Source of the DNA: an uncultured Eggerthella sp.
Lineage (GTDB): Bacteria > Actinomycetota > Coriobacteriia > Coriobacteriales > Eggerthellaceae
DNA: 64,000 nt
Assembly (NCBI GenBank): GCA_900538545.1
Contig: UPYK01000004.1
Span: 30,098-94,097, forward strand
Direction of reading: 5' to 3'
Below the pieces are notes generated by a model, which ran no database searches, was not told the origin of the DNA, and was given only the letters and a program-made list of their open reading frames with translations. Made by a program: the position numbers and the translations under genes. Below, one piece after another: positions 1,004 through 31,643 of the stretch (its first letter is position 1; every line of letters starts with the position of its first letter).

Positions 1004-1126
1004 TTGATCTCCTCCCGAAGCATTCTCGCAAGCACTTTTATGATTGCTCAAAACTATTTCTTTACTAAAGCTGATCACTTAAGAGCATTGTGGGATCAAA
1101 ATGATCGAAGCTAAATTGAGCGAGAA

Positions 1127-7344: not shown

Positions 7345-7346
7345 GA

Positions 7347-8411: not shown

Positions 8412-8416
8412 GTCCC

Positions 8417-14177: not shown

Positions 14178-15136
14178 TGTATATCACCTATTTCTTTTTC
14201 CCAGTTCAGCCTCTCTTCTTCAATAACAAGAGGCGCAGATCGAGTCCATTCAAAAGTTAAAGCTACATAAGTTCCAACGATGCCGAGCGCCAGCACCGCT
14301 AATGATAGCCCCAAACAAACCAAAGAAGCAGCTAACAAGCCATAGAAAATCGCCGATCCTTGAACTATAGAGAGAACTAGCATCACAATAAACATAACAG
14401 CAAAAAGAACTGCCGAAAATGCTCCCGCAAAAGCAATCATGTAAATAGGCTGGCGAGACACCGTCACAACAGACTCAAGCGCCAGTCCAAAGTATGAGAA
14501 AAAGTTATAGCTTGATTTTCCTGCTGTACGTTCGGGTTTTTTGAAATCAATATACTCGGGCGTATATCCATAGCGCATGAAGGTCAAACGATAATTCGGA
14601 CAGGGGTCTCCGCTTTCCCTCAATCTATCAACTACGCTCTTATCATAAAGCCCAAAACCAGAAACATGCTTATAGCCTTCTGTTCCGCAGAACCCTTCTA
14701 TTAAATCGTAATACCAATTCCTAAAATGCGTTATGATTCCGCGTTCTTCGCTTTCTGGGTTCCGACCTAAAACGATCTTACTGCCGTTTTCCCATCTATC
14801 GATAAACTGAGGAATCAGCTCTGGAGGATCTTGCAGATCGCATGCCATACCTACCACAACATCGCCTTCACACGCAAGAAGCCCATGAGCGCTCGATGGT
14901 CCCGGGCCAAAATTCCCCTGATTGAGAATTACCTTTACCCGCTTATCATTAGCAGCAAGCTTCTTCAATATGTCGCGGCTGTTGTCAGTCGACTTATTAT
15001 CAATGAATACAAACTCATATTCGTACTCAGGCAGAGTTTCCATAACCTTGTTAACACGTCGATAAAGCTCTTCTATATTGCCCTCTTCGTTGTAGCAAGG
15101 CACAGCGACACTGATTGTCTTTGTCTTCAAAATCAT
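14174..15136 (-). CDS. GtrB/ArnC-like polyprenyl-phosphate glycosyltransferase (GT2 with C-terminal TM anchor)
   Basis: ISVAVPCYNEEGNIEELY...FIDNKSTDNS...DLQDPPELIPQF GT2 signature, followed by two C-terminal TM helices. This is the architecture of Und-P-sugar synthases. Confidence 0.8.
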   Translation of the reverse strand: MILKTKTISVAVPCYNEEGNIEELYRRVNKVMETLPEYEYEFVFIDNKSTDNSRDILKKLAANDKRVKVILNQGNFGPGPSSAHGLLACEGDVVVGMACDLQDPPELIPQFIDRWENGSKIVLGRNPESEERGIITHFRNWYYDLIEGFCGTEGYKHVSGFGLYDKSVVDRLRESGDPCPNYRLTFMRYGYTPEYIDFKKPERTAGKSSYNFFSYFGLALESVVTVSRQPIYMIAFAGAFSAVLFAVMFIVMLVLSIVQGSAIFYGLLAASLVCLGLSLAVLALGIVGTYVALTFEWTRSAPLVIEEERLNWEKEIGDIQ

Positions 15137-15221: not shown

Positions 15222-16373
15222 TTATAAGTCATAAAATCCCTTTTGAAGTTTTATTGGGTGTTGCAATGCCTGTACGATTATCGCAGCTGCTTTTTTTGAC
15301 GTATCTCCCAAGCCGTAGGGGTTATCCATCTCTTTTATGCTGCCCTTAAATGCTTGATTGAGAGCCTTGTCCATAGCACGAGAGATCGATCGAGCATCTT
15401 CTGCGCAATCGATTACACTTTTTGTCCTTGTCCTACCTTTTTGGCGCGGTCCAATATTTATGGTTGGAATATAAAATGCTGGCGCTTCAAGAAGCCCACT
15501 CGAAGAATTACCAATAACGAATTCAGCTTGCGCTAGTGCGCTAAGATAGCGAAGCGATCCCAGAGAATCAAAAAGAACGAAATTCTCATTTGAATCAGCA
15601 AACTCCTTGAGCGCATCATTGATCGCGCCACCTCCAGCATCAGCATTTGCTTTAGTTGCAATGAATAGGATATTCTGTCGCTCTTGGATAGCTAACAAAA
15701 GTTGCTGGAGTTTTTCAGTTGGATCTTCATGATCCAGTGTAACCGGATGATAGGTCATAACCGCATAGGGCCGAGAAAGTTCAACACCAAGCGAGTCACT
15801 GAGCTCTGCAACGCTTAACAGAGTGGTGTTTAGAGCGTTTTCAATTCCCACAGCCCCAACATTAAAAACTGTTGAAGGGTCCTCACCAAGCTGAATGACA
15901 CGATTGCGATATTCTTCCGTGCTCGTAAAATGCAAAGAACTGAGCTTGGTTATACAATGTCTTATCGCATCATCGATCGCTCCTTCAGTGACCTCTCCGC
16001 CATGAATATGAAAAATAGGAATACGAGCAAGAAAAGCTGCTTCTGCAACTCCTAGCGTTTCGTAACGATCTCCAAGCAAAAGCAACGCATCAGGTCGTTT
16101 TCTTTCAAAATACTCGCTAAATCCCAGGAGAGCATTGCTCATGGTGCGCGCCTCAGCTTTAGCATCATCTCCTGTTGCAAGTATTGGAATCTCGACATCA
16201 ATCGGCAGCTCGGAGTCTTGGACCTCTCGAATGGTAAGACCGTGCTCTTCTGAAAGATGGGTTCCACTGACAATAACCCTAACTTCGACTCCGGACCTTT
16301 GCAAAGCTTCTCCAAATGGTCGTAAAAGCCCCCATTCTGCTCGCGTTGTAGTTGAGATAGCAATGGAACTCAT
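15222..16373 (-). CDS. neuC: hydrolysing UDP-N-acetylglucosamine 2-epimerase
   Basis: Full-length resemblance to the NeuC/LegG epimerase_2 family (IHGGEVTEGAIDDAIRHCITKLS, GNSSSGLLEAP). Start at the ATG at 16373 (MSSIAIS), overlapping the neuB stop; the longer ORF to 16436 is unlikely. Confidence 0.85.
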   Translation of the reverse strand: MSSIAISTTTRAEWGLLRPFGEALQRSGVEVRVIVSGTHLSEEHGLTIREVQDSELPIDVEIPILATGDDAKAEARTMSNALLGFSEYFERKRPDALLLLGDRYETLGVAEAAFLARIPIFHIHGGEVTEGAIDDAIRHCITKLSSLHFTSTEEYRNRVIQLGEDPSTVFNVGAVGIENALNTTLLSVAELSDSLGVELSRPYAVMTYHPVTLDHEDPTEKLQQLLLAIQERQNILFIATKANADAGGGAINDALKEFADSNENFVLFDSLGSLRYLSALAQAEFVIGNSSSGLLEAPAFYIPTINIGPRQKGRTRTKSVIDCAEDARSISRAMDKALNQAFKGSIKEMDNPYGLGDTSKKAAAIIVQALQHPIKLQKGFYDL

Positions 16374-17386
16374 AGGAATATCTTTTCCTCCGCTTCGTAG
16401 GAATACGGAGCAACCGTACCTATTAGCGTAGGCCATAGCATAGGATCAAGACCATCACCTGGGCGTTTTGTTGTAAGGTTCTCTTCAGTAAACTCTTCTC
16501 CAGCTTGTATATCCCTCTTTGCAACAATGCTTCGTCTTGCAACGCTGCGATTGGCTAACTCCGAATCCGTAACCCTCTTCTCGGCACAACCGAGTGCCTT
16601 TTCGATATGCCTAATCGAAGAAATCATTTCACGGAGCTCATTGGGATCAAGGCTTGCCAAATGGTCAGGCCCCTCCATAGTCTTATCAAGCGTAAAATGT
16701 TTCTCGATAACACGCGCGCCGAGCGCAACTGCAGCTATTGGAACCTCAATACCAGACGTATGATCAGAATAACCAACATCAACACCTAATTCATAGTGTA
16801 GTTCGTTTAGAACAAGAAGATTCACGTCTTCATAAGGCGTTGGATATTGCGTGTTGCAATGAAGAAGTGTTATGGAATCGCCGCCATGTTCTTTGAGAAC
16901 ACCCAATGCGGCCTTGATCTCTGGAAGAGTAGCCATACCGCACGACATGATTATCGGAAGACCATAAGAAGCTGATTGTACTAAGTATGGATAATTATTC
17001 AATTCTCCTGAGGGTATCTTGATAAAAGAAATACCGATATCCTCAACAAGAAATCGCGAACTATCTTCGTCGAATGCGGTTGCTGAAAACTCAATACCTA
17101 TCAAGTCGCAGTAATGCTTGAGCTCAGCAAAATCCTCATAGCTCAATTCGAGCCTTTTTAACATATCCAATTGGCTCTCATCGCCACCAGTTGTCTTTTT
17201 CTGATAATCAGCTTTCTCAGCCTGTCTTGAAACAAGTGCTTCAGATTTAAATGCTTGAAATTTAACTACATCGGCACCGGCTTCTTTGGCAGCCATCGCG
17301 AGCTGTTTCGCCAGACTAAGACTACCGTTGTGATTTACGCCAGCTTCCGCAATCACCAATGTATGGCGAGCATTCGTATCAGCCAT
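16370..17386 (-). CDS. neuB: N-acylneuraminate-9-phosphate / nonulosonic acid synthase
   Basis: VIAEAGVNHNGSLSLAKQL...VKFQ, the NeuB TIM-barrel signature, plus a C-terminal SAF/antifreeze-like domain. Confidence 0.9.
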   Translation of the reverse strand: MADTNARHTLVIAEAGVNHNGSLSLAKQLAMAAKEAGADVVKFQAFKSEALVSRQAEKADYQKKTTGGDESQLDMLKRLELSYEDFAELKHYCDLIGIEFSATAFDEDSSRFLVEDIGISFIKIPSGELNNYPYLVQSASYGLPIIMSCGMATLPEIKAALGVLKEHGGDSITLLHCNTQYPTPYEDVNLLVLNELHYELGVDVGYSDHTSGIEVPIAAVALGARVIEKHFTLDKTMEGPDHLASLDPNELREMISSIRHIEKALGCAEKRVTDSELANRSVARRSIVAKRDIQAGEEFTEENLTTKRPGDGLDPMLWPTLIGTVAPYSYEAEEKIFL

Positions 17387-18008
17387 AAATCCCCACTACC
17401 TTTTGGTTCTCTTTAACATCACCCAAAACAACAGCTCCTGCTCCAACGAGCGCTGAATCGCCGAGTGTCACGCCTTGGATAACAACCGCGTTGGCCCCAA
17501 CAAAAGTGAATTTTCCTGCCTGTACGTTCCCACATAATGTTGCATTGACTGCCACATGGGAAAAATCGCCTAAACAGCAGTCATGCTCGATGACTGCACC
17601 CGAATTAACAATGGTCATAGCACCTATGTTCGTATTTGAATTGACGACCGCAAGCTTGCCGATGAAAGAGCCTTCCTCAATAATCGCATCATTCGCAACA
17701 ACGGCCGATGGATCTATGATAGGGGGAAATGCGAAACCAAGGCTTTTAGCACGGCTAAACAACGTCTCTCTTAATCTTGACTTGCCCAAGTAACCAACAG
17801 TGACCGCAGCGAGCGTGATTCCGCTCTTGAATATCGCATCTAAATCATCATCGGAGCCAATCGTTGTATACTCTTTGTAACTTGTAGTAGGTTCCTGATC
17901 GATAAACCCCGCAATTTCATACTGCCCCATTCGTTCGATAGCGTCGACCACTGAGTGGGCATGTCCCCCGCCGCCAATAAGTACTATCTTTTCTTTTCCT
18001 GTACTCAT
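17379..18008 (-). CDS. NeuD/PglD-family sugar N/O-acetyltransferase
   Basis: N-terminal IVLIGGGGHAHSV Rossmann-like part followed by hexapeptide repeats. Typical size of about 209 aa. Confidence 0.8.
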   Translation of the reverse strand: MSTGKEKIVLIGGGGHAHSVVDAIERMGQYEIAGFIDQEPTTSYKEYTTIGSDDDLDAIFKSGITLAAVTVGYLGKSRLRETLFSRAKSLGFAFPPIIDPSAVVANDAIIEEGSFIGKLAVVNSNTNIGAMTIVNSGAVIEHDCCLGDFSHVAVNATLCGNVQAGKFTFVGANAVVIQGVTLGDSALVGAGAVVLGDVKENQKVVGIYG

Positions 18009-18076: not shown

Positions 18077-19249
18077 CTATTGCTGAGAGCTGATCTCTTT
18101 GAGAACTTGCACAACACGATCGATCTCTTTTGCAGTCAAATTCGTACTACAAGGAACATTGACAATTTGTGTGCGATACTTTCTTGCTTGTTCAACGCAA
18201 TACTCTAAAGAACCCGCATATGGTTTTTGATCTGGAATGATACCCCAGATAGGGCGCGATTGGATGTTGTTCGAACTTAGCTGCTCGATAATGTCATCTC
18301 GGGAAAAATCGTCCCCTTCGCAAACAATGCTATAGAACCATTTATTACTCCGGATATCTGGGCGGAATCCTAGAACAGCTAGATTCTCTAGAGGAGCAAT
18401 TTCGTGGACATAGTATTCATGATTCTTGTTTTTGGTCTCAATAAATGATTCCAGCTGTTCAAGCTGCGCGATGCCCAATGCCGCCTGCAAATTGGTCATA
18501 CGGTAGTTATAGCCGATCTCATCATGCTCAAAATATACAACATCGCTTTTCGCTTGCGTAGTAAGATGCCTGGCATGATCAAGAAGTTCTTGATCATCGG
18601 AGACGATCATTCCACCACCCCCCGTGGTGATGATCTTATTCCCATTGAACGAATAAACCCCTATAGTTCCTATCGTTCCTGCATATTTTCCTTCGTATTG
18701 ACCTGTTGTGTAGTACGAACCTAGCGCTTCTGTTGCATCTTCTATTACCTTGATATTGTACCTATCGGCAATCGCCATGATCGCTTCCATATCAGCCATG
18801 TTCCCAAAAACATGCACCACCACCAGCACGCGCACTGGCCGATCAGTTTGATCGTGGATCAGCACTCCATCTGTGAACGTGCATTCTTCTTCGCAGAATC
18901 GCTCAAGCTTAATAGGATCTATACACAAGGAAGAATCGCAATCGAGAAACATCGGTTCAGCATTCATATACCGAATTGGATTTGCTGCAGCGATGAATGT
19001 TAGAGCTGGCACAAGAACTAAATCGTCAGATGTAACGCCAAGGACCATGAGAGCTATATGAAGACCTGCGGTGCCGCTTTGACAAGCGACGGCCCCTTTC
19101 GCATTGACATATTCAGAGATATTCTCTTCAAACTGGCTCACATAAGGTCCTCCAGTCGATACCCATTCAGTTTCAACAGCCGTTGTTACCAGTTCAAGCT
19201 CTCTGCCCTTCAGATTAGGAACTGATAAAGGAATGAAGTCGGTAGTCAT
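18077..19249 (-). CDS. DegT/DnrJ/EryC1/StrS-family PLP-dependent nucleotide-sugar aminotransferase
   Basis: Family-typical sequence throughout, including the conserved lysine region (SFNGNKIITTGGGGMIVS). Confidence 0.85.
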   Translation of the reverse strand: MTTDFIPLSVPNLKGRELELVTTAVETEWVSTGGPYVSQFEENISEYVNAKGAVACQSGTAGLHIALMVLGVTSDDLVLVPALTFIAAANPIRYMNAEPMFLDCDSSLCIDPIKLERFCEEECTFTDGVLIHDQTDRPVRVLVVVHVFGNMADMEAIMAIADRYNIKVIEDATEALGSYYTTGQYEGKYAGTIGTIGVYSFNGNKIITTGGGGMIVSDDQELLDHARHLTTQAKSDVVYFEHDEIGYNYRMTNLQAALGIAQLEQLESFIETKNKNHEYYVHEIAPLENLAVLGFRPDIRSNKWFYSIVCEGDDFSRDDIIEQLSSNNIQSRPIWGIIPDQKPYAGSLEYCVEQARKYRTQIVNVPCSTNLTAKEIDRVVQVLKEISSQQ

Positions 19250-19290: not shown

Positions 19291-20280
19291 TTAGATATTG
19301 TAGATGTCTGTTTTGTAGCGATCGATATTGTCCCTAAGAAAGTCAATCGTTTCAGCAAGACCCTGCGTAAAAGAATACTTTGGCTGCCAATCAGTCAGCT
19401 TCAAAATCTTTTCATTTGACCCGAGCAAACGGTTGACCTCGCTTTTTTCAGGACGAAGGCGCTCCTCATCACATACGATGCACGCATTTGGATTAATCTG
19501 CCTGATCAACTCTTCCGCAAGCTCGCCAATGGATATTTCCTGTTGAGTAGCAATGTTGATCTCTTCGCCTATGGTCTTCGGTGATTCGTATATATCGATA
19601 AACCCATTTGCAGTGTCTTTGACGTAATTAAAATCTCTTGTTGGAGTCAATGACCCTAGTTCGATCTCCTCTTTCCCTGCAAGCAATTGCGTGATGATCG
19701 TTGGAATAACAGCACGTGCCGACTGTCTTGGACCATAAGTGTTGAACGGTCGAACAATGGTCACAGGCAGATCAAAGGAACGGTAAAACGATTCAGCCAA
19801 TCTATCTGCACCGATCTTGGTCGCAGAATAAGGCGATTGCCCCTGGTAAGGATGATTCTCATCAATAGGGACGTATTGTGCTGTTCCATATACTTCCGAA
19901 GTTGACGTTACTAACACTCTGTCTAAATCAAGCTTTCTTGCTGCTTGAAGGACATTCAAAGTGCCTTTGATATTCGTGTCCACGTATGTATCTGGAGAAT
20001 GGTAACTAAACGGAATCGCAATAAGAGCCGCAAGATGGAAAACCGCATCGCAGCCCTTCATCGCCTCCAAAACGCCATTAGGGTCACGCACGTCACCAGC
20101 AAAGACTTCCACATGCTCCATAATGTCGTTTGGCAGATCCTCAAGCCATCCCCAATTATTGAACGAGTTATACAGAATGAAAGCTCTGACATCATAACCA
20201 CGCTTGACTAGCTCTTCAGTCAAATGGCTTCCGATAAATCCTTCTGCTCCTGTAACAAGAATCTTTTTTGGCATGTTCAT
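19291..20280 (-). CDS. NAD-dependent nucleotide-sugar 4,6-dehydratase/epimerase (extended SDR)
   Basis: ILVTGAEGFIGSHL, TSTSEVYG, YSATK motifs. Sits immediately upstream of the aminotransferase, as in LegB/PseB-like or CDP-sugar dehydratase arrangements. Confidence 0.8.
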   Translation of the reverse strand: MNMPKKILVTGAEGFIGSHLTEELVKRGYDVRAFILYNSFNNWGWLEDLPNDIMEHVEVFAGDVRDPNGVLEAMKGCDAVFHLAALIAIPFSYHSPDTYVDTNIKGTLNVLQAARKLDLDRVLVTSTSEVYGTAQYVPIDENHPYQGQSPYSATKIGADRLAESFYRSFDLPVTIVRPFNTYGPRQSARAVIPTIITQLLAGKEEIELGSLTPTRDFNYVKDTANGFIDIYESPKTIGEEINIATQQEISIGELAEELIRQINPNACIVCDEERLRPEKSEVNRLLGSNEKILKLTDWQPKYSFTQGLAETIDFLRDNIDRYKTDIYNI

Positions 20281-20317: not shown

Positions 20318-22135
20318 TTATTCGTCGAGCTCATAAAGGGAAACGCTGCGTTTTTTTCCAAAGGTTTGATAAGCCCTTTCAAACTGCTCAACTTCCCTGA
20401 TCTGCTGGTAGATACTTTCTGGATCTTTGCTAAAAGACCTCGCATTCGAATAATCGAAATACAACAGATCAGGGTTATCTTTTAAATATTGCGCTAAGGT
20501 CTCAGAAGTATTCAAGAGAGGAAGGATATCGTTATAAAGCGTAAACCCATTCTCATATTCTCCTGCGACAATCTTCCCATCTGCAATTTCTCCAAGCTCA
20601 ATCATAGCCTCTTTCTCAGTATAAGTCTGATTAAGAACGTTGTAATTCAAAACTAGACCAGTATTAATAGCAATACAGATCAAAACCGAAGCAAAGAGCG
20701 AACAAACTTGAATCTTGTATTTCTTCGTTAACACACCGCCCGCAAACACCACAACGATTATGCTCGAAAGTATGCAATTGATCAGCAACAACACAACATC
20801 AAAATCAGAATAGTCAAGTCGCGAAAAAGTCGGACTGTTCGCACGGAACAGACGATAATACGTCACATAGATCATTACCACGAGCGAAACAGCCGTCATC
20901 AAGCAGACAGCGATCTTACCAACTGGACTACTTTTGCTGGTTTTGTTCATTTTCGTAAGACCCAAATAGCAACAATAGAACAATAATAGTAGCGTTGGAA
21001 GAATCACAACTGCTTTCCGAAGAACAAAATCATCACTTACAACCGTCTGAGCAAAAAACCCGACCATGGTCATCAGCAACACTAAAATCGGCCCACCTGT
21101 GGCTTTAAAAGCCTGTCTAAACAGAGGGATGAGGCAAACGAATACTATGCCCATTATTGGGAGAAGATAGAATAACGCATTCGACAGGAAAAACGCACGA
21201 ATGTTCCTCAGCAGATTCTCTGCCCCCATTGCATATGCTCCTGCACTTTGTCCCGAGGATTCAAAAATAAGAACGCTGTTTATCGCATTAGCTATCGGCG
21301 TAGTATCCCAGACGCACCAGTAGTAAATACTTGCCAAAAATAAAGCTAGACCAGCACCGATAAGACCAAAAAGGACCAACGACCCGCCTGCACGCTTACC
21401 TTGAGTTGCAAAAACATAAGCAGCATAAGCCAAAACAGGTATGCCGATGAATAGATTCGTCACATAGACGAAAAGAATCGAGGCAAAAGCAAGGAATCCT
21501 ACTAATAGACCCTTCATACGGATCGAAATGCTTGGCTTAATCAAGCAATAGATGATCAGTTGAACCAACAAAAGCCGAGAAATACTTGGCTCAACAGCCT
21601 TGGTTGCATTGAAAAAGACAAAGCTTGCTAGCAAAGCAACGACCAGAAGAAGCGCCATTATTGCGGCATTCTTATCTTCTCTACCATAAGCTTTTCGTAA
21701 CTCATTGATGGTCAAGCAGAAGAGAATCAAGATAAGATAGCCAATAAAGACAACGCCTATTCTCAATCCGAAATAATTATCTCCGAAGATCAATAAAGAT
21801 AACGCTGTGAAAAAATTCCCCACCACATTGCAGATAACATGAGACTGCATAAGGAATTCATATTGCCCGGCATAATAATCATTAGGATTGATCGAGCCAA
21901 AATTGATCAGATTCAATGCAAGGTTCGCATAGGTACCTTCATCTATTGGTTGATAGGCTGCAACACCCCAAGGTGGCAAATCCGATTCGAGAAATAGAAC
22001 ACGAGAAAAATATACCAGAGTTATCAGTGTATAAAACGCAATGCTCTTCCAGTTCTTCTTCATGCTGCCAACCAAACCAGCAGAAGACGACCTAGCATGT
22101 TTCCCATGAGTCTTATGTATCGAAAAGCTATTCAA
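20318..22135 (-). CDS. GT-C-fold membrane glycosyltransferase (PMT/ArnT/GT39-like) with C-terminal soluble domain
   Basis: 605 aa. The N-terminal ~450 aa are polytopic with loop features of dolichyl/undecaprenyl-phosphate-sugar-dependent GT-C enzymes, and the C-terminal ~150 aa are soluble. The start is uncertain: TTG at 22135 or ATG at 22063. Confidence 0.5.
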   Translation of the reverse strand: MNSFSIHKTHGKHARSSSAGLVGSMKKNWKSIAFYTLITLVYFSRVLFLESDLPPWGVAAYQPIDEGTYANLALNLINFGSINPNDYYAGQYEFLMQSHVICNVVGNFFTALSLLIFGDNYFGLRIGVVFIGYLILILFCLTINELRKAYGREDKNAAIMALLLVVALLASFVFFNATKAVEPSISRLLLVQLIIYCLIKPSISIRMKGLLVGFLAFASILFVYVTNLFIGIPVLAYAAYVFATQGKRAGGSLVLFGLIGAGLALFLASIYYWCVWDTTPIANAINSVLIFESSGQSAGAYAMGAENLLRNIRAFFLSNALFYLLPIMGIVFVCLIPLFRQAFKATGGPILVLLMTMVGFFAQTVVSDDFVLRKAVVILPTLLLLFYCCYLGLTKMNKTSKSSPVGKIAVCLMTAVSLVVMIYVTYYRLFRANSPTFSRLDYSDFDVVLLLINCILSSIIVVVFAGGVLTKKYKIQVCSLFASVLICIAINTGLVLNYNVLNQTYTEKEAMIELGEIADGKIVAGEYENGFTLYNDILPLLNTSETLAQYLKDNPDLLYFDYSNARSFSKDPESIYQQIREVEQFERAYQTFGKKRSVSLYELDE

Positions 22136-22176: not shown

Positions 22177-23958
22177 TCACCATTCTGGCATAAATGCTTT
22201 CTGTTGTTCGTCTGGCAAGAAGGGATACATCTCTTCCAGCGCTGGGGTTGAAAACGATCCATCTTCTAGCATTTTGCTCATTAGTTTGGGTACGAGCGGA
22301 TCATTGATGCGCTGATCGATCTCCAACAGCACTCTTCCATTGTATTTGGCAAAATCAGCAAGTGTGCTATTAAGTTCCATATTCGTTCGGCAATGCAAAT
22401 ATCCAAACCCGAACAACTCAGCTACAGATTTAAACGATGGAAAGCTCACTCCTGTTTCCTTAGTACATCCGATAAAGAGCCCATCAAAATAATTTAAACT
22501 TGTCTGACGAATTGCACTGTACCCCTCGTTTGCAAAAATAACGATCTTGATGGGCAGATTATAATGGCGAATAGTCTGTAGCTCTTGAAGGTTCATCATT
22601 ATTGTGCCATCACCTGTGACACATATCACTTCACGACCTGATGCAACACAGGCACCAATAGCCGAAGGCAAATCGAAGCCCATCGCCCCTGCGCCGTAAT
22701 TTGTAATGACGCGCTGATCTTTTTTCTCTTTTCCAACTTGAACCTTCACAGAACAAGCAGTGTTCATGCCCAAGCAGACAATTGCATCATCGGACATAAC
22801 ATCATTGAGCTCCTGCCAAAACCGATAGGCGCCAACACGCTCATCATCCTCAGTATTCTTGATTCCCTCGAACGGATCGAGCGCATCATAGACCGTCTGA
22901 CAATAATCCAACCATTGCGAAGGAGCCTCCAGCCTTTGATCGAGATCGTTCATGTTCTGCAGGAATTGTTTAACATCTGTGCATACTACATGGTCAACAC
23001 TAAGGCCTGGCTTCTTCGACTCTGTTTCATCGACATCTACCATGATGATCTTTGCATTTGGTGCAAATTTTTCTTGCACGAACCCTGTCTGCTTAAAACC
23101 AAGACTGTTCCCAACAGCTATTATCAAATCAGCATTCTGAAGAATATAGTTTCCTGCACGAGGTCCAATATTGCCCGATAAGCCAAAGAATAGAGGATGC
23201 TCGTTATAGTAAATATCTGCCACATGTGCCCCGCCCACAATAGGGACATTATTGGCATTGATGAACGCATCGAGCTCATCTAGTGCATCTCCCGCAATTA
23301 CACCCGATCCCACAAGAACGCAAGGGCGTTCCGCGTTCAGAATCTCTTCAACAACATAATCCAACTCTTTATCTGAAAGCGAACTAGGCTCATTGGAGGG
23401 AACGTATTCGACAAGATCGTCAGTTTCGACAAGGGCGCTTTGCACATTAAGCGGAATATCAAGCCAAACAGGCCCTCTGCGACCCTCCATCGCAATCGCA
23501 TACGCTTTCTCGACTTCTGCCTTAATCGTGAGTGGGTCGATTATGGTTTTGGCATATTTTGTCATATTGCGAACAGAAGATACGATATCGCACTCTTGGA
23601 CCCCACGATACCTTAACGGTAAACCCGAACTGTATACTGAGATGTCATATCTGACCTGCCCTGACAGCACAATCATTGGAATACTATCGGTCCAGGCACC
23701 CAATACCCCAGTGATAGCATTCGTAGCGCCAGGACCACTCGTGACACATACAAGTGCAGGCCTTCCACCTATACGTGCGTAGGCATCAGCCGCCATGGAG
23801 CAAGACTGCTCATGATGCATGAAATACTTATTTATGTCATCGTTAAGAGCCAAAGCATTATCAAGATGCATGGCTCCGCCACCGACGACAGCGAAGCAAT
23901 CCGTGACCCCCAAATCGGACAAGGTACTCATCACGATATCGGCTGCACGTTTTTTCAT
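22177..23958 (-). CDS. thiamine-pyrophosphate-dependent enzyme, acetolactate-synthase-large-subunit-like
   Basis: N-terminal TPP_enzyme_N (GVTDCFAVVGGGAMHLDNAL...CVTSGPGATNAITGV), a central domain and a C-terminal TPP-binding domain (GDGTIMMNLQEL). 593 aa. Confidence 0.8.
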   Translation of the reverse strand: MKKRAADIVMSTLSDLGVTDCFAVVGGGAMHLDNALALNDDINKYFMHHEQSCSMAADAYARIGGRPALVCVTSGPGATNAITGVLGAWTDSIPMIVLSGQVRYDISVYSSGLPLRYRGVQECDIVSSVRNMTKYAKTIIDPLTIKAEVEKAYAIAMEGRRGPVWLDIPLNVQSALVETDDLVEYVPSNEPSSLSDKELDYVVEEILNAERPCVLVGSGVIAGDALDELDAFINANNVPIVGGAHVADIYYNEHPLFFGLSGNIGPRAGNYILQNADLIIAVGNSLGFKQTGFVQEKFAPNAKIIMVDVDETESKKPGLSVDHVVCTDVKQFLQNMNDLDQRLEAPSQWLDYCQTVYDALDPFEGIKNTEDDERVGAYRFWQELNDVMSDDAIVCLGMNTACSVKVQVGKEKKDQRVITNYGAGAMGFDLPSAIGACVASGREVICVTGDGTIMMNLQELQTIRHYNLPIKIVIFANEGYSAIRQTSLNYFDGLFIGCTKETGVSFPSFKSVAELFGFGYLHCRTNMELNSTLADFAKYNGRVLLEIDQRINDPLVPKLMSKMLEDGSFSTPALEEMYPFLPDEQQKAFMPEW

Positions 23959-23988
23959 AAGTGATACCCCTGTTCAGTATTAGTCATC

Positions 23989-24900
23989 TTATTGATATCT
24001 TTGTACCCATTCGGGCATCGTCTCTTTTTCAAACTCAATCTGCCGTTTGATACCCTCATTTAATGAGGCAAATTCTGCAGGTAAACCAGTTTCGTCGTTT
24101 AGTCGATTCACTGACGCAGTATATTCTTTGTTCAGGCCTGGACTAGAGACTTGCACGCTCAAATCCGAGTTCATGGCATCTATAACCGTTTGCGCTATCT
24201 CACTCAAGAGCACTGGGGATCCTGATGCCACGTTATAATCACGGTATTGAGGCTTATTGTGAATAAAATAGCCTATGATCTTGGCAAGATCATAGACATG
24301 AAGATAATCGAATTTGCAGTCTTGCCTGATCGTTATATCTCTCCCCAGCAAGATGCTCCGAATACAATGGGTTATGAATTTTGAATCGTGATCATAAGGA
24401 CCAAAGCAAGCAAACAATCGCAAGTTGGTCACGTTATCGCTGCTCTGAGCCAAGGAATTCATGATGAATTTTGCTTCGCCATACGCATCAACAGGAACCG
24501 AATTCGCTACTTCTTCTTCTTCAATCTGTTGAATATCACGACGCTTGTCATATTCCGCGCCTGAGCCCAGATATAAGATATGCGAGCAAGAATTTCGTTG
24601 TCGAAAGATATTCATGAAGCTCTTCAGCGAGGCTTCGAACATATCTTTATCGCCGTCGGCTTCAGGATTCTTAACAGGATTCGGATTTGCTAAATGCACT
24701 ATCACATCTACCTGATGATCATCAACATAACGAGCTATCGCATCTGCGTCGAGTAAATCAAGCTCAGCTCGAGGTGGAGTCAAAAGATTGCAATTCTCGC
24801 CGATAAGGGGTGCAATATTGCGTCCAACAAATCCTGAACCGCCGGTTAGTAATACGACTGGCCGATCTAGAAACTGCCTCTCCTCGGCTTCTTGAATCAT
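23989..24900 (-). CDS. NAD-dependent epimerase/reductase (SDR family)
   Basis: LLTGGSGFVGRNI Rossmann motif. ~300 aa, typical of nucleotide-sugar 4-ketoreductases and epimerases. ATGA overlap with the upstream gene. Confidence 0.7.
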   Translation of the reverse strand: MIQEAEERQFLDRPVVLLTGGSGFVGRNIAPLIGENCNLLTPPRAELDLLDADAIARYVDDHQVDVIVHLANPNPVKNPEADGDKDMFEASLKSFMNIFRQRNSCSHILYLGSGAEYDKRRDIQQIEEEEVANSVPVDAYGEAKFIMNSLAQSSDNVTNLRLFACFGPYDHDSKFITHCIRSILLGRDITIRQDCKFDYLHVYDLAKIIGYFIHNKPQYRDYNVASGSPVLLSEIAQTVIDAMNSDLSVQVSSPGLNKEYTASVNRLNDETGLPAEFASLNEGIKRQIEFEKETMPEWVQRYQ

Positions 24901-25982
24901 AACTTGCCCTCCAAGCGCTGGGTTGCGACCTGCATCTTATTAAGCTCACCAATGTCTATCCAAGAGTTCTCAGGGATGGGGAATACTCCCACTTTTCCGC
25001 CCCCTTGCATACAGCGTTTTACGATATCGGGGAAATCAATCGCCTCTTCTTCCCCAATGCAATCCAAGACATGGGGCTCCACAATATAAACTCCCGTACT
25101 AACGAGGAATGAGAACTCAGGTTTTTCTTTCAAACCTGTTACATATCCATCGTCATCTGTCTCGATAACCCCATAAGGAATAGAAGTGTTGACCATGGCG
25201 CTCACATAAGTGATATCGTCTCCAAGTTCTTTATGGGTCTGATAAGCGCACGCCAGATCATCGTCGATCAAGATGTCACAGTTCGAAACGATAAACGTTG
25301 AGTCTATATGCCCTTTAAGCAAAGCCAGTCCGCCACCCGTACCTCTAAACTCTTTTTCAGTGAGGAAATGTACGGAGTAATCCGTATCGGCCCCTTCAAA
25401 ATACGACTTGACCATGTCGGCCTTATGATTCAGGATGAACCAAACTTCTCTGCACCCTCGAGAATAGAACTGTTCGATGATGCGCTCAGCAATGCTTGTG
25501 TCTCCAATAGGCACCAAAGCTTTAGGCAGGATCTTCGTATAAGGATAAAGACGCGTGCCTTTACCTCCTGCCATAATCACTAGAGGAACGCCAGCTAGAG
25601 CTTCCTCCAACATCATCAAATCGTCTTCACTATTGAATGCCAGCATGAGAAGCTTTTTTGCTTCATCAACAAGAGGATAAACAATATAGGGATGGGTCTT
25701 TTTTGCTGAATTGATCTCAGCTTCAGATTTAAAACAGACTGGGTTTGGGTTCATCGCTTGAACAACAGGACTTGCCAAATCGCCATCTTCTAAGAAAAAA
25801 TGACGCATGTCGCCGTTGGTAAACAGACCCAAAAGACTATTGTCTGAATCAATAACAGCAACAGCAGGAGCATGATTTTTGCTCATAAGCTCTATCGCGT
25901 CACGAACACTTGCGTCTTTGCCAACCGTATTATCTAACCCATTTTGCATAATCTTAATCCTCGAACTTACAGCACTTGCCAA
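24897..25982 (-). CDS. CBS-domain-containing sugar-phosphate nucleotidyltransferase (PtmE-like)
   Basis: Two N-terminal CBS repeats (VRDAIELMSKNHAPAVAVID...) fused to an NTP-transferase domain (LVIMAGGKGTRLYPYTKILPKALVPI). Confidence 0.75.
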   Translation of the reverse strand: MASAVSSRIKIMQNGLDNTVGKDASVRDAIELMSKNHAPAVAVIDSDNSLLGLFTNGDMRHFFLEDGDLASPVVQAMNPNPVCFKSEAEINSAKKTHPYIVYPLVDEAKKLLMLAFNSEDDLMMLEEALAGVPLVIMAGGKGTRLYPYTKILPKALVPIGDTSIAERIIEQFYSRGCREVWFILNHKADMVKSYFEGADTDYSVHFLTEKEFRGTGGGLALLKGHIDSTFIVSNCDILIDDDLACAYQTHKELGDDITYVSAMVNTSIPYGVIETDDDGYVTGLKEKPEFSFLVSTGVYIVEPHVLDCIGEEEAIDFPDIVKRCMQGGGKVGVFPIPENSWIDIGELNKMQVATQRLEGKL

Positions 25983-25991
25983 GCGCGGTTA

Positions 25992-26768
25992 TTACCACAC
26001 TTTCCAAGGAGCACGGCGGCCGGTCCAAAGTTCCTGAAGCTGCTCGCGCTCGCGCTGCGTATCCATGCACTTCCAGAAACCAGGATGACGATAGCAAGAC
26101 AGCTTGCCTTCGTCGGCAAGAACAGCAAGGACATCCTCTTCAAAGACTGAATCATCGCCGCCAATATAGTCGAACACTGCTGGCTCGCAAACCATGAAAC
26201 CGCCGTTGATCACCGAGCCATCAACATTCTTCTTCTCTCTGAAGGTCGATATCTTTCCATTGTCGTCGATATCAAGAATGCCTTTGCTCTGCCCAATCGA
26301 TACACCACTCAGCGTAACGATCGAATCAGATTTCTCGTGCGTCTCGAGCAGTTTCGCTAAATCGATATCTGCAACGCCATCACCGTAAGTGAGCATGAAC
26401 GGCTCATCGTTCACGTACTGCTTGATGCGTTTGATGCGCCCACCGGTCATGGTGCTATAGCCCGTATCAGCCACGGTTACACGCCATGGTTCAGCCTGGG
26501 AGGAATGTACGGTAACTTCTTTTGATCCGCCGCGATAATCGAAGGTGACATCGGTATGCTGCAAGTAATAATCATCGAAGTACTCTTTGATCTTGTGCTG
26601 CTTATAACCTGCACAGATGATGAAGTCAGTAAAACCCTGTGCTGCGTAGATCTTCATGATGTGCCAAAGAATAGGCCTGCTTCCGATTTCGATCATCGGC
26701 TTAGGGCGCAGGTGGCTCTCTTCTGAGATCCTTGTTCCAAATCCGCCTGCTAAGATTACTACCTTCAT
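25992..26768 (-). CDS. rfbF: glucose-1-phosphate cytidylyltransferase
   Basis: VVILAGGFGTRISEESHLRPKPMIEIGSRPILWHIMKIY is near-identical in pattern to enterobacterial RfbF/DdhA. 258 aa. Confidence 0.85.
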   Translation of the reverse strand: MKVVILAGGFGTRISEESHLRPKPMIEIGSRPILWHIMKIYAAQGFTDFIICAGYKQHKIKEYFDDYYLQHTDVTFDYRGGSKEVTVHSSQAEPWRVTVADTGYSTMTGGRIKRIKQYVNDEPFMLTYGDGVADIDLAKLLETHEKSDSIVTLSGVSIGQSKGILDIDDNGKISTFREKKNVDGSVINGGFMVCEPAVFDYIGGDDSVFEEDVLAVLADEGKLSCYRHPGFWKCMDTQREREQLQELWTGRRAPWKVW

Positions 26769-26789: not shown

Positions 26790-27995
26790 TCATCGAACCA
26801 AAACGTGAATATGTTCGTTGATACCTGCCATATTATCGTTCATCTGCTGTAATGAATCAAATCTCATGAATATGATTCCGAGTGCTTTATTCGCACCATC
26901 AAAGGATTCGATCTGCTCGCCTTCTTGTTCATAAAGAACCGTACGATAGACGCTTGGCGAAAGAACCTCATCGATCTCTATACCATCGAAAATGCCGTCT
27001 TGAAGAGAATGCAAGACATGGGTCGCATAGGCGTCATGCGACAGATCGTAATCGAGGTTTTCGGGCGTTTCTCCCATTGCGCAGAGAACGTTAGCTTCAA
27101 CAAGGTCGATTCCCGATGCGTCGCTCAATTGCACGGGAATCATATTGCCCCCTGCACGTGAACCTAGCTCGATGATATAGGGAGTATTCTCTTTTCCCAG
27201 TATCACTTCCACATTCATCTCACCAAAACGTATACCAAGCGTCCTCACGAGACGCTGAAGAGCATCTTTTATGCTCTTCTTTTGCTCAGCAGAAAGGTTC
27301 GTGGGTGTTTTCTTACCTGTCGGAACTAATTCCACAGCCGCATCACGCACGCAATCCATAAGTCCCCAGAAACGAACCTCTCCATCAATAACGAAGATAT
27401 CGCCCCCGATTACGCAAGGGTACTCCTTCTCGATATACTCTTCAGCAATAAGAACACCGTTATTGTTGATCTTATCGGCAGCTTCTACCGCCAAGACGAA
27501 CGATGCCTGGTCTTCAACAATGGAAACGCCTTTGCTTCCTGATGAATCGGTAGGCTTCACCACGATCGGAAGAGTGAAGCTCTGGAGCGATTCCCATGTC
27601 TTTTCTAGGTCGTCTTTTGCCGAGAACGCCATCGAAGCGGGGCAAGGGAAGCCCTGTTGCTTTAGGTGTTCGCGAAAAAGATGCTTCTGAGACATCGTTT
27701 CGACCGCTGAGAGCGGATTGGTCGGCAAGCCCAATTCTTCGGCAACAGCAGCCGCGATAGGACTTGCGGGGTCAGTCGCATACGCCAGAACGCCTTCGAC
27801 GCGCTCCTTACGAGCAACTTCAAGAACAGCATCTCTATCGGTAGTGCTTACCGGATAATAAACATCTGCGATGAATTGCCCTGGATTATCAGGCAGATAA
27901 TCGCAGAGAACCGTACGATAGCCGAGACGCTTCGCCGTCTCGATCGCAATAAGCTGATGAGGCGATCCTCCGAGCATGAGCAAAGATCTAGTCAT
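26790..27995 (-). CDS. ATP-grasp domain ligase
   Basis: LLMLGGSP pre-ATP-grasp region and a PIVVKPTDSSGSKGV ATP-binding block. Start at the ATG at 27995 with a GGAGG RBS 6 nt upstream, 4 nt after the aminotransferase stop; the longer ORF to 28055 is unlikely. Confidence 0.65.
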   Translation of the reverse strand: MTRSLLMLGGSPHQLIAIETAKRLGYRTVLCDYLPDNPGQFIADVYYPVSTTDRDAVLEVARKERVEGVLAYATDPASPIAAAVAEELGLPTNPLSAVETMSQKHLFREHLKQQGFPCPASMAFSAKDDLEKTWESLQSFTLPIVVKPTDSSGSKGVSIVEDQASFVLAVEAADKINNNGVLIAEEYIEKEYPCVIGGDIFVIDGEVRFWGLMDCVRDAAVELVPTGKKTPTNLSAEQKKSIKDALQRLVRTLGIRFGEMNVEVILGKENTPYIIELGSRAGGNMIPVQLSDASGIDLVEANVLCAMGETPENLDYDLSHDAYATHVLHSLQDGIFDGIEIDEVLSPSVYRTVLYEQEGEQIESFDGANKALGIIFMRFDSLQQMNDNMAGINEHIHVLVR

Positions 27996-29130
27996 GCGCT
28001 GCCTCCAACAGGATCTCGCATATCCGGTCAACGTCTTCGAGGGAAAGATCGGCATACAGAGGCAAGGTTATGACCTTAGAAGCTACTCGCTTGGCGATTG
28101 GCGTAGTATCGCTCGAGTACATCTCTCGATAACAGGCAAAATCAGTAACGAGAGGATAGAAATACTTGCGTGCTCCTATGCCCTGTTCGGCCAACTTATC
28201 GAATATCTCATCGCGCGAGGCTCCAAAGGCGTCGGAATCCACCACAACAGGAAGGTAGGCGTAATTGTGTTCCACATTCGCTGGAGGGATACACAAAGAC
28301 AGTCCCGGCACATCTGAAAGAAGTTCGTAATACCTTTCGGCGACCTGTTTGCGTTTCGCTATCTCACTTGCCACGTGGTGCAGATTGCAAAGCCCCATTG
28401 CAGCAGCAAATTCGTTCATCTTCGCATTGCCACCCACAAAATCACACGACTCAGAGTCTTTCATGCCAAAGTTCGCATGACTTACCAGCTCTACTGCAAG
28501 CTGGGGATCCTTAAAAGAAGCTGCTCCACCTTCAATGGTGTTGAACACCTTCGTAGCATGGAAGCTGAACATGCTCGCGTCGCCAAAACGCGCTACCGAA
28601 ACACCATCTTCCTTCACGCCAAAGGCATGCGCCGCATCATAGATGACTTTCAAATCGTATTTTTTTGCAATGCGCTCGATCTGTTCATGATCGCAAAGAT
28701 TCCCGTATACATGGACGGGCACGATCGCGCAGGTGTTCTCCGTAATAAGCGACTCGATCTTCTCAGGGTCGATCGTATAATCGCTCGAACGAATATCGCA
28801 AAAAACCGGCTTGAGACCTTTGCGAGCCAATGCATTGGTCGTGCTCACAAAGGTAAAAGGAGTGGTGATAACTTCATTACGCCCATCATGCCCCAATTCA
28901 AGGGCTTCAACAATGTTTTCGAGCGCCAAATGCCCATTGGTGAAAAGCGCAAGATTTGACGTGTCCAAAAAACCTTGCAAGGCAGTTTCGAGTTCGCGAT
29001 GTTTTTCCCCTCGGTTAGTAAGCCATCTGCTCTCCCAAAGCGACGCTATTTCAGCGCAATACTCTTCATAAGGAGGCATCGAAGGGCGTGTTACTACTAT
29101 CTGCGAACTAGAAATCGGTATCATCCTCAT
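27988..29130 (-). CDS. DegT-family PLP-dependent aminotransferase, probably dTDP-4-keto-6-deoxyhexose 4-aminotransferase
   Basis: DegT/DnrJ family sequence. Positioned between rfbA and the ATP-grasp gene. Start uncertain: ATG at 29130 or 29124. Confidence 0.8.
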
Positions 29131-30025
29131 AAGAATCGGAAAGAAGGCTTCCGCGCACCCTGCGCTCATATACCGCATAGAGATATTGGCCGTAGGGAGA
29201 TTTCGCATATTTGTCGGCTGCGGCTTTCAGGGTATCGCCGTCGATCCAGCTGTTGTTGTAAGCGATCTCTTCTAGCGATGCGATCTGAATGCCCTGGTTC
29301 TTTTCTACAACACGTACGTATTCCGTTGCCGCATAGAGGCTTTCCATGGTGCCAGCATCGAACCAAGCAGAACCGCGATGCAGCAGCTCTACCGACAACG
29401 AGCCATCTTCCAAATACATGCGATTCAGGTCAGTGATCTCAAGCTCCCCACGAGAAGAAGGAAGGATCTGTTTCGCCCATTCAACTGCGCGGCTATCGTA
29501 AAAATAGAGCCCTGTCACTGCATAATTACTTTTAGGATTCTCCGGCTTTTCCTCAAGAGACACAGCCATGCCATCCTCATCGAACTCAACGATGCCAAAA
29601 CGCTGCGGATCAGGGACATAATAGCCGAATATCGTTGCGCCATAGTCTTTTGTTGCAGCTCTCCTCAAGCGAGAAGTTAAGCCGCCACCGTAGAAAATGT
29701 TATCGCCAAGAGTAAGCGCAACAGAGTCATCTCCGATGAAATCCTCGCCGATGAGCAAAGCCTGTGCTAAGCCCTCAGGATCCAGCTGTTCTTTATATGA
29801 CAGACTCACCCCATATTGGGAGCCATCGCCGAGCAAGCGATGGAATTTTGGAAGATCGCGTGGCGAACTGATCACGAGAATATCTCGAATACCCGCCAAC
29901 ATAAGAATCGACAACGGATAGAAGATCATCGGCTTATCGTATACCGGTAGCAGTTGTTTTGAAGTGACCGAAGTGAGCGGATAGAGACGCGTTCCACTGC
30001 CACCCGCAAGAATAATGCCCTTCAT
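29108..30025 (-). CDS. rfbA: glucose-1-phosphate thymidylyltransferase
   Basis: [18 protein letters not shown]...[16 protein letters not shown]-type sequence. Full-length RmlA. Confidence 0.9.
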
Positions 30026-31124: not shown

Positions 31125-31643
31125 TCAATTATTTTTATGAACCACTTCGAGGCCAATCGTTGCGGTTGTAGTTCTACCGAACATAGTCATTTCGATCAAT
31201 GCTCGCCTTTTATGTCGGTCGATCTTCTTGATGATCGCTTCCTGCCCGAATAACGGCCCTTGGGTAACCGTGATGGTCTCTCCTTCGATATAGCCCTCGC
31301 TCATGCGCACACAATAGGCATCATCAGTGAAGGCAACGATCCAGTCTTTCTCCTCTTCAGAAAGAGGCGTGATCTCATTCTTCTGGCCGTTCTGTCCCAA
31401 AAGGCGTGTAGTTGCTGGGACTTTCTTGAGTTCGCTCAGAAGCGCGAGGATCGAATCGGTGACCATGAACAGATACCCTGGAAAAAGCATGCGACGCACA
31501 CGCTTCCATTCTCCTTGGATCTTGCGCATCGTTTCGTATTCCGGAAGGAAAGCATCCTGCAGAATAGCAGGATCGATCATCTGTTTACACATATCTCGCA
31601 CGGCTACTTCTTGTCCGCTATTGACTTGAGCGACATACCACAT
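31125..31643 (-). CDS. NusG-paralog transcription antiterminator (UpxY/LoaP-like)
   Basis: NGN domain (MWYVAQVNSGQE..., LFPGYLFMV) and a C-terminal KOW motif (GETITVTQGPLFGQEAIIKKID). It is the first gene of the minus-strand glycan operon. Confidence 0.75.
   Translation of the reverse strand: MWYVAQVNSGQEVAVRDMCKQMIDPAILQDAFLPEYETMRKIQGEWKRVRRMLFPGYLFMVTDSILALLSELKKVPATTRLLGQNGQKNEITPLSEEEKDWIVAFTDDAYCVRMSEGYIEGETITVTQGPLFGQEAIIKKIDRHKRRALIEMTMFGRTTTATIGLEVVHKNN

Follow-up and report, generated by a model that had tools for sequence, protein, structure and literature searches.

A probable YerE-like carboligase and its putative reductase partner in a legionaminic-acid-type gene cluster without a CMP-synthetase from an uncultured Eggerthella sp.

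The 64,000-nucleotide stretch of DNA analysed here (the window; contig UPYK01000004.1 of an uncultured Eggerthella sp., positions 30,098 to 94,097) carries a surface-glycan locus that includes a gene for a thiamine diphosphate (ThDP)-dependent enzyme. The locus genes are all encoded on the minus strand and extend from the start of the window to about 31.7 kb. In the order of transcription they encode a Wzz-like protein, RmlA, a DesI-like aminotransferase, an ATP-grasp protein, RfbF, a nucleotidyltransferase with CBS domains (CBS-NTase), a short-chain dehydrogenase/reductase (SDR), the ThDP enzyme, a membrane protein of 605 amino acids (aa), LegB, LegC, a PglD/NeuD-type acetyltransferase, NeuB, NeuC, an ArnC/PgfS-like family 2 glycosyltransferase (GT2) and a CysE-like acetyltransferase; the 3' remainder holds flippases, further ATP-grasp enzymes, RmlB and a Gfo/Idh/MocA oxidoreductase (GFO). 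The description that fits the locus best is that of a legionaminic-acid-type nonulosonic acid (NulO) pathway in which the cytidine monophosphate (CMP)-activation step is replaced by a pair consisting of a YerE-like carboligase and a reductase. The genes on which this description rests are the following (NDP, nucleoside diphosphate; GlcNAc, N-acetylglucosamine; scores are in bits against the cut-off of the model):

22177–23958, minus strand: predicted YerE-like (JanthE-type) ThDP-dependent carboligase, 593 aa (Pfam domains, motifs and a C-terminal tail shared with JanthE)
23989–24900, minus strand: extended SDR, 303 aa (Pfam Epimerase, E 4e-30; GxxGxxG and YxxxK motifs)
24897–25982, minus strand: CBS-domain nucleotidyltransferase of the PtmE type, 361 aa from a TTG start (Pfam CBS and NTP_transferase)
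25992–26768, minus strand: RfbF, glucose-1-phosphate cytidylyltransferase, 258 aa (TIGR02623, 355 against 300; 1TZF, E 6.9e-84)
19291–20280, minus strand: LegB, NAD-dependent NDP-GlcNAc 4,6-dehydratase, 329 aa, whose product is a 4-keto-6-deoxy sugar (TIGR04180, 516 against 475)
18077–19249, minus strand: LegC aminotransferase, 390 aa, with the catalytic Lys (TIGR04181, 467 against 420)
17379–18008, minus strand: PglD/NeuD-type N-acetyltransferase in the LegH role (Pfam PglD_N and Hexapep; TIGR03570, 199 against 161)
16370–17386, minus strand: NeuB/LegI nonulosonic acid synthase (TIGR03569, 465 against 400; Pfam NeuB and SAF)
15222–16436, minus strand: NeuC/LegG hydrolysing NDP-sugar 2-epimerase (TIGR03568, 436 against 236)

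A first-pass annotation of this DNA had described a three-domain ThDP enzyme of ~590 aa in a glycan operon, and this is what we find: the 593-aa open reading frame (ORF) contains the three Pfam ThDP domains (TPP_enzyme_N, E 7.5e-33; TPP_enzyme_M, E 1.4e-26; TPP_enzyme_C, E 3.7e-30), with the catalytic Glu50 in an HHEQ motif and the canonical G449-D450-G451...N477 motif. Its best relative of solved structure is JanthE of Janthinobacterium sp. HH01 (PDB 8rph, 8rpi and 8rpj), a YerE-like ketone-accepting carboligase; 8rph is matched at 353 bits (E 2e-104, 33% identity over 580 residues). Both proteins have a C-terminal tail that includes the JanthE active-site Lys (K567, corresponding to K558 in the window enzyme) and that is common to JanthE only; they differ in the ThDP motif, which is an unusual CDG in JanthE and the canonical GDG in the window enzyme (PMC12188165). 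The score on TIGR00118, the model for acetohydroxyacid synthase (AHAS), is 333 bits against a cut-off of 538, and the enzyme is also far under the cut-offs of all PRK AHAS models. Among the other solved relatives, plant AHAS is matched at ~220 bits (30.5% identity) and 5AHK, presumably the YerE of P. protegens, at 230 bits (29.5% identity). In a neighbour-joining tree calculated without bootstrap, in which the YerE-type solved chains compared are JanthE and 5AHK, the window enzyme belongs to a large clade that is sister to JanthE and the enzymes from classical RfbF-RfbG-RfbH contexts, with 5AHK and plant AHAS outside this grouping. Inspection of the flavin adenine dinucleotide (FAD) site revealed that the GxG and DxD motifs of the middle domain are kept, that the AHAS segment RFDDR reads SLGFK and that the JanthE residues Y268 and P293, which are said to stabilise FAD, correspond to I264 and K289. 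Judged from the domains, the scores, the shared tail and the tree, the protein is very probably a YerE-like carboligase and not an acetolactate synthase. The first-pass proposal of a YerE-type enzyme therefore stands as far as the family is concerned, given the best relative, the score on the AHAS model and the contexts of the homologues described below; the yersiniose-like route that it attached to the enzyme does not stand for this window.

The SDR gene is located directly upstream of the ThDP gene, and not directly downstream as first described (the downstream neighbour is the 605-aa membrane protein, followed by LegB), and overlaps the CBS-NTase gene by 4 bp. These genes are closely spaced, with gaps of 0–45 bp. 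The SDR is far under every NCBIfam dehydratase/epimerase cut-off; its score of 53 bits against 365 on the dehydratase model rules it out as the absent cytidine diphosphate (CDP)-glucose 4,6-dehydratase, and its motif region reads GSGAEY instead of the dehydratase TDE/TDK in a part of the alignment that is uncertain. It is a candidate YerF-like reductase of a new side-chain ketone. The CBS-NTase and RfbF lie upstream, in agreement with the first description; for the CBS-NTase, gene callers give a length of 350 aa, against 361 aa from the TTG. By analogy with PtmE of the C. jejuni pathway, the CBS-NTase presumably supplies NDP-glucosamine or NDP-GlcNAc to the legionaminic-type pathway.

By family assignment, LegB, LegC, the PglD-type acetyltransferase, NeuC, NeuB and the PtmE-like CBS-NTase form a legionaminic-acid-type NulO pathway. 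When set against the canonical CMP-legionaminic acid pathway of C. jejuni (PtmE, LegB, LegC, LegH, LegG, LegI, LegF), all members but LegF are matched in the window, which instead has the SDR-ThDP pair, a polyprenyl-phosphate GT2 and a GT-C-like protein. This pathway went unrecognised at the first pass, which was right on the enzyme family but wrong on the pathway: RfbF, a dehydratase, a DegT-family protein, the ThDP enzyme and a reductase had been combined into a set that could encode a yersiniose-like branched sugar. The dehydratase of that set is LegB, the window has no RfbG or RfbH, and the neighbours belong to the legionaminic-type pathway. The DegT protein at 18077–19249, whose proposed E1 role hinged on a His-for-Lys substitution, retains the catalytic Lys and passes the cut-off of the LegC equivalog model, and we reject the E1 role. 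Both DegT proteins of the window keep the Schiff-base Lys (within YSFNGNK in LegC) and have no Cys-rich Fe-S insertion; the E1 signature (HH, that is His-for-Lys, together with a CxC...C insertion) is present only in DegT proteins of other loci (L007 and L008), of which the L008 protein reaches 733 bits on the RfbH model NF011936. Searching the 64 kb by tblastn with bona fide sequences, we found no orthologue or remnant of CDP-glucose 4,6-dehydratase (RfbG) or RfbH. That no E3-type reductase is visible was also correct: none, whether Fe-S or flavin, is among the Pfam hits of the locus.

No CMP-NulO synthetase (LegF/NeuA, PF02348) was detected in the 64 kb, either with a motif scan or in a tblastn search at E<=10, the query of which was sensitive enough to find homologues down to 23% identity in canonical loci. 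The 229-aa ORF at 13488–14177 was considered as a hidden CMP-synthetase and ruled out, being CysE/EpsC-like. Our comparison covers 163 related loci overall. It includes 80 species-level genome loci encoding ThDP homologues, onto which the window proteins were mapped, and a control set of 80 metagenome loci anchored on LegB at 68–98% identity; the latter are mostly canonical legionaminic acid (Leg) clusters with a CMP-synthetase homologue and without the ThDP enzyme. A CMP-synthetase is present in 2 of the 50 NeuB loci with the ThDP enzyme, as compared to 28 of the 38 NeuB loci without it (Fisher p = 2e-12), and the same Leg set with a CMP-synthetase is found in 28 metagenome loci. The two exceptions are L028, whose CMP-synthetase is part of a distinct neu gene set encoded on the other strand, and L048; most of the 10 NeuB loci that have neither gene are short contigs. 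At the cluster level, a NeuB locus typically has one or the other, the SDR-ThDP pair or the CMP-synthetase.

We define the close clade as the ThDP homologues at least 50% identical to the window enzyme, and as full-flank its 40 loci with both flanks of at least 7 kb. Within the latter, an SDR homologue is encoded in 39 loci, NeuC and the CBS-NTase in 35 each, NeuB in 34, LegB in 22, RfbF in 19, RfbG in 16, a LegC-type aminotransferase in 14 and RfbH (E1) in 13, with either RfbG or LegB in 30; bona fide CDP-glucose 4,6-dehydratase and RfbH carrying His-for-Lys occur in the loci of relatives and could supply the acceptor there. The SDR homologue lies immediately upstream of the ThDP gene in 45 of 52 close-clade loci and is also found in classical RfbF-RfbG-RfbH loci. 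The typical order is NeuC, acetyltransferase, NeuB, SDR, ThDP, GFO, GFO, CBS-NTase, so that the SDR-ThDP pair sits within the NulO gene set, and the CBS-NTase accompanies LegB, LegC, NeuB and NeuC in ThDP loci and in canonical CMP-synthetase loci alike. LegB relatives are 68–98% identical in metagenomes and 67–81% identical in most of the ThDP loci that have LegB. The ThDP loci are of two kinds: cell-wall or capsule clusters with a trio of GT2, GT-C protein and acetyltransferase, and flagellar islands beside fliD and fliS. An identical ThDP protein, in the same gene arrangement, is encoded on 9 human-gut metagenome contigs.

More distant homologues, forming a clade at 37–43% identity, are found with RfbF-RfbG-RfbH, often together with an SDR, in 10 of 18 loci, among them loci of Chlorobium, Sulfuricurvum, Zixibacteria and Nitrospirota, and these classical YerE-type contexts support the family assignment. 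Between the NulO-associated and the classical clade, several positions of the active-site region, mapped through JanthE, show fixed differences (NulO-associated/classical: Y117/Q, R118/L, I or V120/D, S285/R, M454/Q and S or C487/Q); these appear consistent with a change of substrate, without indicating which one. NeuB-family genes also adjoin divergent ThDP paralogues in L064 and L077 and at the second ThDP copies of L034 and L033. The latter copies (L034 16899 and L033 5411; 43% and 34% identical to the window enzyme, respectively) each have a NeuB-family neighbour of their own, and the two-paralogue loci belong to Lachnospiraceae or Clostridium. Finally, L071 (Nitrospirota) and L073 (Zixibacteria) combine a complete RfbF-RfbG-RfbH-SDR-ThDP cluster with an FkbM methyltransferase, a HAD phosphatase and a NeuB-family synthase, a set that looks like a synthase of an ulosonic acid phosphate and its phosphatase feeding a YerE-type enzyme.

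Four further genes of the window locus bear on how its product would be made and delivered (TM, transmembrane):

20318–22135, minus strand: GT-C-like membrane glycosyltransferase, 605 aa, with ~13 TM helices and a C-terminal soluble domain (hydropathy)
14174–15136, minus strand: GT2 polyprenyl-phosphate glycosyltransferase (ArnC/GtrB/PgfS-like) with a C-terminal TM segment (Pfam Glycos_transf_2)
13488–14177, minus strand: CysE/EpsC-like O-acetyltransferase, 229 aa (NCBIfam EpsC, E 3.5e-14, under cut-off)
20–1078, minus strand: Gfo/Idh/MocA oxidoreductase at the far end of the locus (42% identical to GFO genes beside the CBS-NTase in related loci)

The best NCBIfam matches of the GT2 are PgfS and ArnC, both under cut-off; it is found in 15 of the 40 full-flank loci and is rare in canonical Leg loci. 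The 229-aa acetyltransferase is found together with the GT2 in ThDP loci, and the 605-aa protein co-occurs with both. While the window copy of the latter gives only a faint PMT_2 (PF13231) signal (E 0.88), its homologue in L009 (40% identity) scores 26.5 bits (E 9e-6). The arrangement resembles GtrB/ArnC plus GT-C systems (ArnT, PMT, PgfS/PgfM), which likewise place a GT2 with a C-terminal TM segment and a ~13-TM PMT_2-like protein beside sugar genes; it differs in that the cargo would be a branched product and that no GtrA-type small flippase was identified in the window locus. Among the Pfam and NCBIfam hits of the locus proteins there is no sialyltransferase-like or other NulO-type transferase. 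Since GT2 and GT-C-type transferases use NDP-sugars, the transferases of the locus fit an NDP-sugar product. The Gfo/Idh/MocA oxidoreductase is probably an early legionaminic-pathway gene.

From the gene families, their order and the replacement of the CMP-synthetase observed at the cluster level, we infer a donor, an acceptor and a product for the SDR-ThDP pair. NulOs are 3-deoxy-2-ulosonic acids. The Leg genes would make a 3-deoxy-non-2-ulosonic acid, i.e. an α-keto acid; the ThDP enzyme would decarboxylate this NulO and couple the C8 acyl-anion equivalent so formed with the keto group at C-4 of an NDP-4-keto-6-deoxyhexose, yielding a tertiary alcohol; and the SDR, as a YerF-type reductase, would reduce the side-chain ketone. 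The product would carry the nucleotide of the acceptor and, as this keeps it activated, a CMP-synthetase would not be needed. The GT2 (14174–15136) would load the sugar onto polyprenyl phosphate and the GT-C-like protein (20318–22135) would pass it to a cell-wall glycan, with the 229-aa acetyltransferase adding O-acetyl groups. Candidate acceptors in the window are the product of LegB, the product of RmlA/RmlB and a CDP-glucose derivative made by a promiscuous dehydratase. That a NulO serves as the α-keto-acid donor of the YerE-like carboligase is, in our estimation, plausible rather than probable; it is the reading that we favour and the most economical explanation of the replacement pattern.

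The scheme has precedents. YerE-like enzymes can use functionalised C4–C8 α-keto acids supplied by a clustered aldolase, with the acyl group being ligated to CDP-4-keto-3,6-dideoxyglucose and its ketone then reduced by a clustered reductase; the proposed gastriose donor, as we read it from the structure of the side chain, is a deoxy-octulosonic-type acid (PMC9306805; PMC12247030). The long-chain YerE-like systems ErwE/ErwF/ErwI (erwiniose), MMAR_2331/2332 (caryophyllose) and MyGE/MygF/MygI (gastriose) share the logic of a builder of a functionalised 3-deoxy α-keto acid, a YerE-like ligase and a reductase (PMC9306805). While their C4–C8 keto acid comes from a pyruvate aldolase, the donor in the window would be a C9 compound with two acetamido groups, made by a six-gene NulO pathway that ends in a phosphoenolpyruvate (PEP)-dependent NeuB, and the 3,6-dideoxy sugar is unlikely to be the acceptor. 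By inference, a PEP-dependent NeuB-type synthase would take the place of the pyruvate aldolase in the published ‘unifying scheme’ for acyl-branched sugars. The YerE/YerF system of Yersinia pseudotuberculosis O:VI (yersiniose A) resembles the scheme in coupling a ThDP carboligase, whose substrate is a nucleotide-linked 4-keto-deoxyhexose, with an NAD(P)H reductase for the next step; RfbF-RfbG-RfbH(E1) contexts also surround distant homologues of the window enzyme. The Yersinia system differs in that the window has no CDP-glucose 4,6-dehydratase, E1 or E3, that the enzyme is placed within a NulO pathway and that its donor is probably not pyruvate.

Several points weigh against a NulO donor. A ThDP enzyme requires the open keto form, and NulOs exist mainly as cyclic hemiketals. 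To our knowledge, there is no known branched sugar with a NulO-derived side chain, and no known glycan structure matches the predicted product; our literature search returned no paper tying YerE-like enzymes to NulO genes, the search not having covered the survey of Krug et al. 2024. The difference between 2/50 and 28/38 loci comes from sets anchored on different genes (ThDP and LegB), with a Fisher test that ignores the kinship of genomes, and a CMP-synthetase could be encoded elsewhere in the carrier genomes. In 6 of the 40 full-flank loci the SDR-ThDP pair is present without NeuB; the enzyme family is thus not tied to NulO donors, and another donor is possible. We looked for a substitute aldolase in NeuB-less loci and found instead, in the two inspected (L062 and L046), a radical SAM/SPASM gene following the pair, which is uninformative as to the donor. 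Some canonical CMP-Leg loci carry RfbF-RfbG-RfbH without the ThDP enzyme, and the co-occurrence of these genes with Leg genes is therefore not specific. Lastly, since the window has neither RfbG nor RfbH, several acceptors are candidates and RfbF looks orphaned.

The donor could instead be pyruvate, with an acetyl branch attached to an NDP-4-keto-6-deoxyhexose (the product of LegB or RmlB, or a CDP-sugar) and reduced by the SDR to hydroxyethyl, giving a yersiniose-like sugar; legionaminic acid would then be a separate residue, its CMP-synthetase encoded elsewhere. This amounts to the first-pass idea with a different acceptor and we consider it rather unlikely. Sequence and context do tie the enzyme to YerE-like enzymes, the founding member of which, YerE, uses pyruvate (PMC9306805); moreover, close-clade members without NeuB exist, and genes for Leg and for 3,6-dideoxyhexose occur together in canonical loci of the same taxa. 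Pyruvate as the donor, however, leaves unexplained both the absence of the CMP-synthetase where the SDR-ThDP pair is present and the position of the pair between NeuB and the PtmE or GFO genes, and it sits poorly with the lack of a detected NulO-type transferase in the locus and with the several fixed positions of the active-site region that differ from the classical-context clade. Pyruvate would also be the donor if the branch were introduced before the NulO is built, the ThDP enzyme acting on the 4-keto product of LegB, the SDR reducing it, and NeuC and NeuB converting the branched hexose into a C-branched NulO. The presence of LegB in 22 and of LegC-type aminotransferases in 14 of the 40 loci, and the unusual conservation of LegB (reaching 98% identity in the set of 80 metagenome relatives), speak for this order of events. 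The end product would nevertheless still require CMP activation by the missing synthetase, L009-like loci have NeuC, NeuB and a CDP-glucose dehydratase but no LegB, and several loci without LegC have DesI-like aminotransferases in its place, all of which makes it improbable.

We regard as more doubtful still, and very improbable, a non-ligating α-keto-acid decarboxylase acting together with an aldehyde reductase, which would turn the NulO into a 2-deoxy-octose or octitol, or produce an unusual N-acyl substituent. Simple decarboxylases exist in this ThDP superfamily, and such a reading is compatible with the SDR-ThDP pair replacing the CMP-synthetase, but there is no kinase or other activation route for the product, the nearest characterised relatives are ketone-accepting carboligases, and distant homologues adjoin genes that form keto sugars. 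A genuine anabolic AHAS large subunit (IlvB/IlvG/IlvI) lying in the glycan locus by chance is next to untenable. AHAS shares the superfamily and the three-domain architecture at ~30% identity, TIGR00118 is the top-scoring NCBIfam model, and relatives of the enzyme are publicly annotated as ‘acetolactate synthase’. Against this, the 333 bits on that model remain well short of 538, JanthE outscores any AHAS by 130 bits, the glycan context is conserved across more than 80 genomes, and the 64-kb window has no ilv gene, be it for a regulatory subunit (ilvN/ilvH) or ilvC or ilvD; in the tree the enzyme stands apart from plant AHAS. We reject the AHAS reading on score, tree and context.

If a NulO is indeed the donor, NulOs would have a second fate beside CMP activation, namely, as acids of the legionaminic or neuraminic type, to be acyl-anion donors for a nucleotide-linked C-branched higher sugar. 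We put this forward tentatively, with slightly less conviction than the donor assignment itself, together with its two corollaries: the product would bear a C8 diacetamido side chain on a 6-deoxyhexose, with 14 backbone carbons, and decorate cell-wall glycans or flagellins; and the carriers would be many gut Firmicutes, this Eggerthellaceae-like actinobacterium and scattered members of other phyla. For a branch derived from Leg5Ac7Ac, we calculate monoisotopic residue masses of 436.206 on a 6-deoxyhexose, 420.211 on a 3,6-dideoxyhexose and 477.232 on a 6-deoxy-HexNAc, to which each O-acetyl group would add 42.011, and C-4 would be quaternary. Cultured carriers of the cluster include Dorea sp. 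5-2 (KE159759), Butyrivibrio sp. XPD2006 (NZ_ATVT01000017), Faecalibacillus faecis SNUG30370 (NZ_PYLP01000019) and Paenibacillus sp. 1011MAR3C5 (NZ_QZCF01000007). NeuB-family synthases would then join the toolbox of branched-sugar biosynthesis. In genome surveys, neuB, legB and other NulO genes count as markers for host mimicry and sialic-acid-like surface decoration; such surveys would have misread dozens of commensal species of the gut, for the most part Lachnospiraceae and other Clostridia. A class of surface or flagellin sugar would await discovery, and biocatalysis would gain a ThDP enzyme able to use a keto acid that is both large and densely functionalised.

The GC content of the glycan locus is 42–50%, compared to 53–58% in the rest of the window, with the shift near 31.7 kb, and an RfaH/NusG paralogue (31125–31643) is encoded directly upstream of the low-GC genes. 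Such a pattern is typical of variable surface-glycan loci that are exchanged horizontally and controlled by an antiterminator. The other 32 kb carry Gram-positive housekeeping genes (DnaE, CysS, ClpC, LysS and a PcsB-like hydrolase). The closest genome locus, L009, is from a metagenome-assembled genome labelled ‘uncultured Eggerthella sp.’. The window and L009 are 90–96% identical in DNA sequence from 33059 to exactly the stop codon of RfbF (25992), and ~72% identical beyond it; RfbF thus appears to end a conserved 5' block and to lie outside the variable module. At this breakpoint L009 (6829–7998) has a gene for CDP-glucose 4,6-dehydratase, whereas the window has none. Judged by this comparison, the locus is a mosaic in which RfbF appears to have been orphaned by a recombination breakpoint.

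A second sugar module at 26790–30025 encodes RmlA, the DesI-like Lys aminotransferase and an ATP-grasp ligase. RmlB is encoded 25 kb from RmlA, at the opposite end of the locus (1127–2146), and two further ATP-grasp enzymes together with a protein resembling ornithine cyclodeaminase and alanine dehydrogenase lie at 6274–9742. This gene content suggests an amino-acylated 4-amino-4,6-dideoxyhexose as the product of the second module. The longest ORF of the DesI-like aminotransferase (27988–29208) overlaps RmlA (29108–30025) by 100 bp, and gene callers picked shorter starts (363–393 aa) on the identical contigs; the true start is probably internal to this ORF. Two 10-TM proteins (10556–12112 and 4910–6262) have no significant family match, the second giving a faint Wzy_C hit, and are candidate polymerases or ligases. 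With the two Wzx-like flippases (12132–13469 and 3465–4922), they point to a locus that makes two glycan units or runs two assembly lines.

Three accessory observations were made in the related loci. Four metagenome loci (L121–L123 and L129) combine canonical CMP-legionaminic clusters with RfbF, RfbG and an E1-type RfbH and have no ThDP enzyme, from which it follows that Leg and a 3,6-dideoxyhexose are probably joined in one glycan in those gut taxa. A radical SAM/SPASM gene lies immediately 3' of the SDR-ThDP pair in L007 (11824–12831), L062 (11814–12827) and L046 (11790–12821); in flagellar-type and NeuB-less loci it recurs as a third member beside the pair. Some ThDP-NulO loci contain a DUF386 (YhcH-like) gene (L008 14477–14938; also L040, L049 and L059). 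YhcH of E. coli is encoded in the sialic acid (nan) operon; the DUF386 protein could conceivably help to open the ring of the keto acid or act on it as an anomerase.

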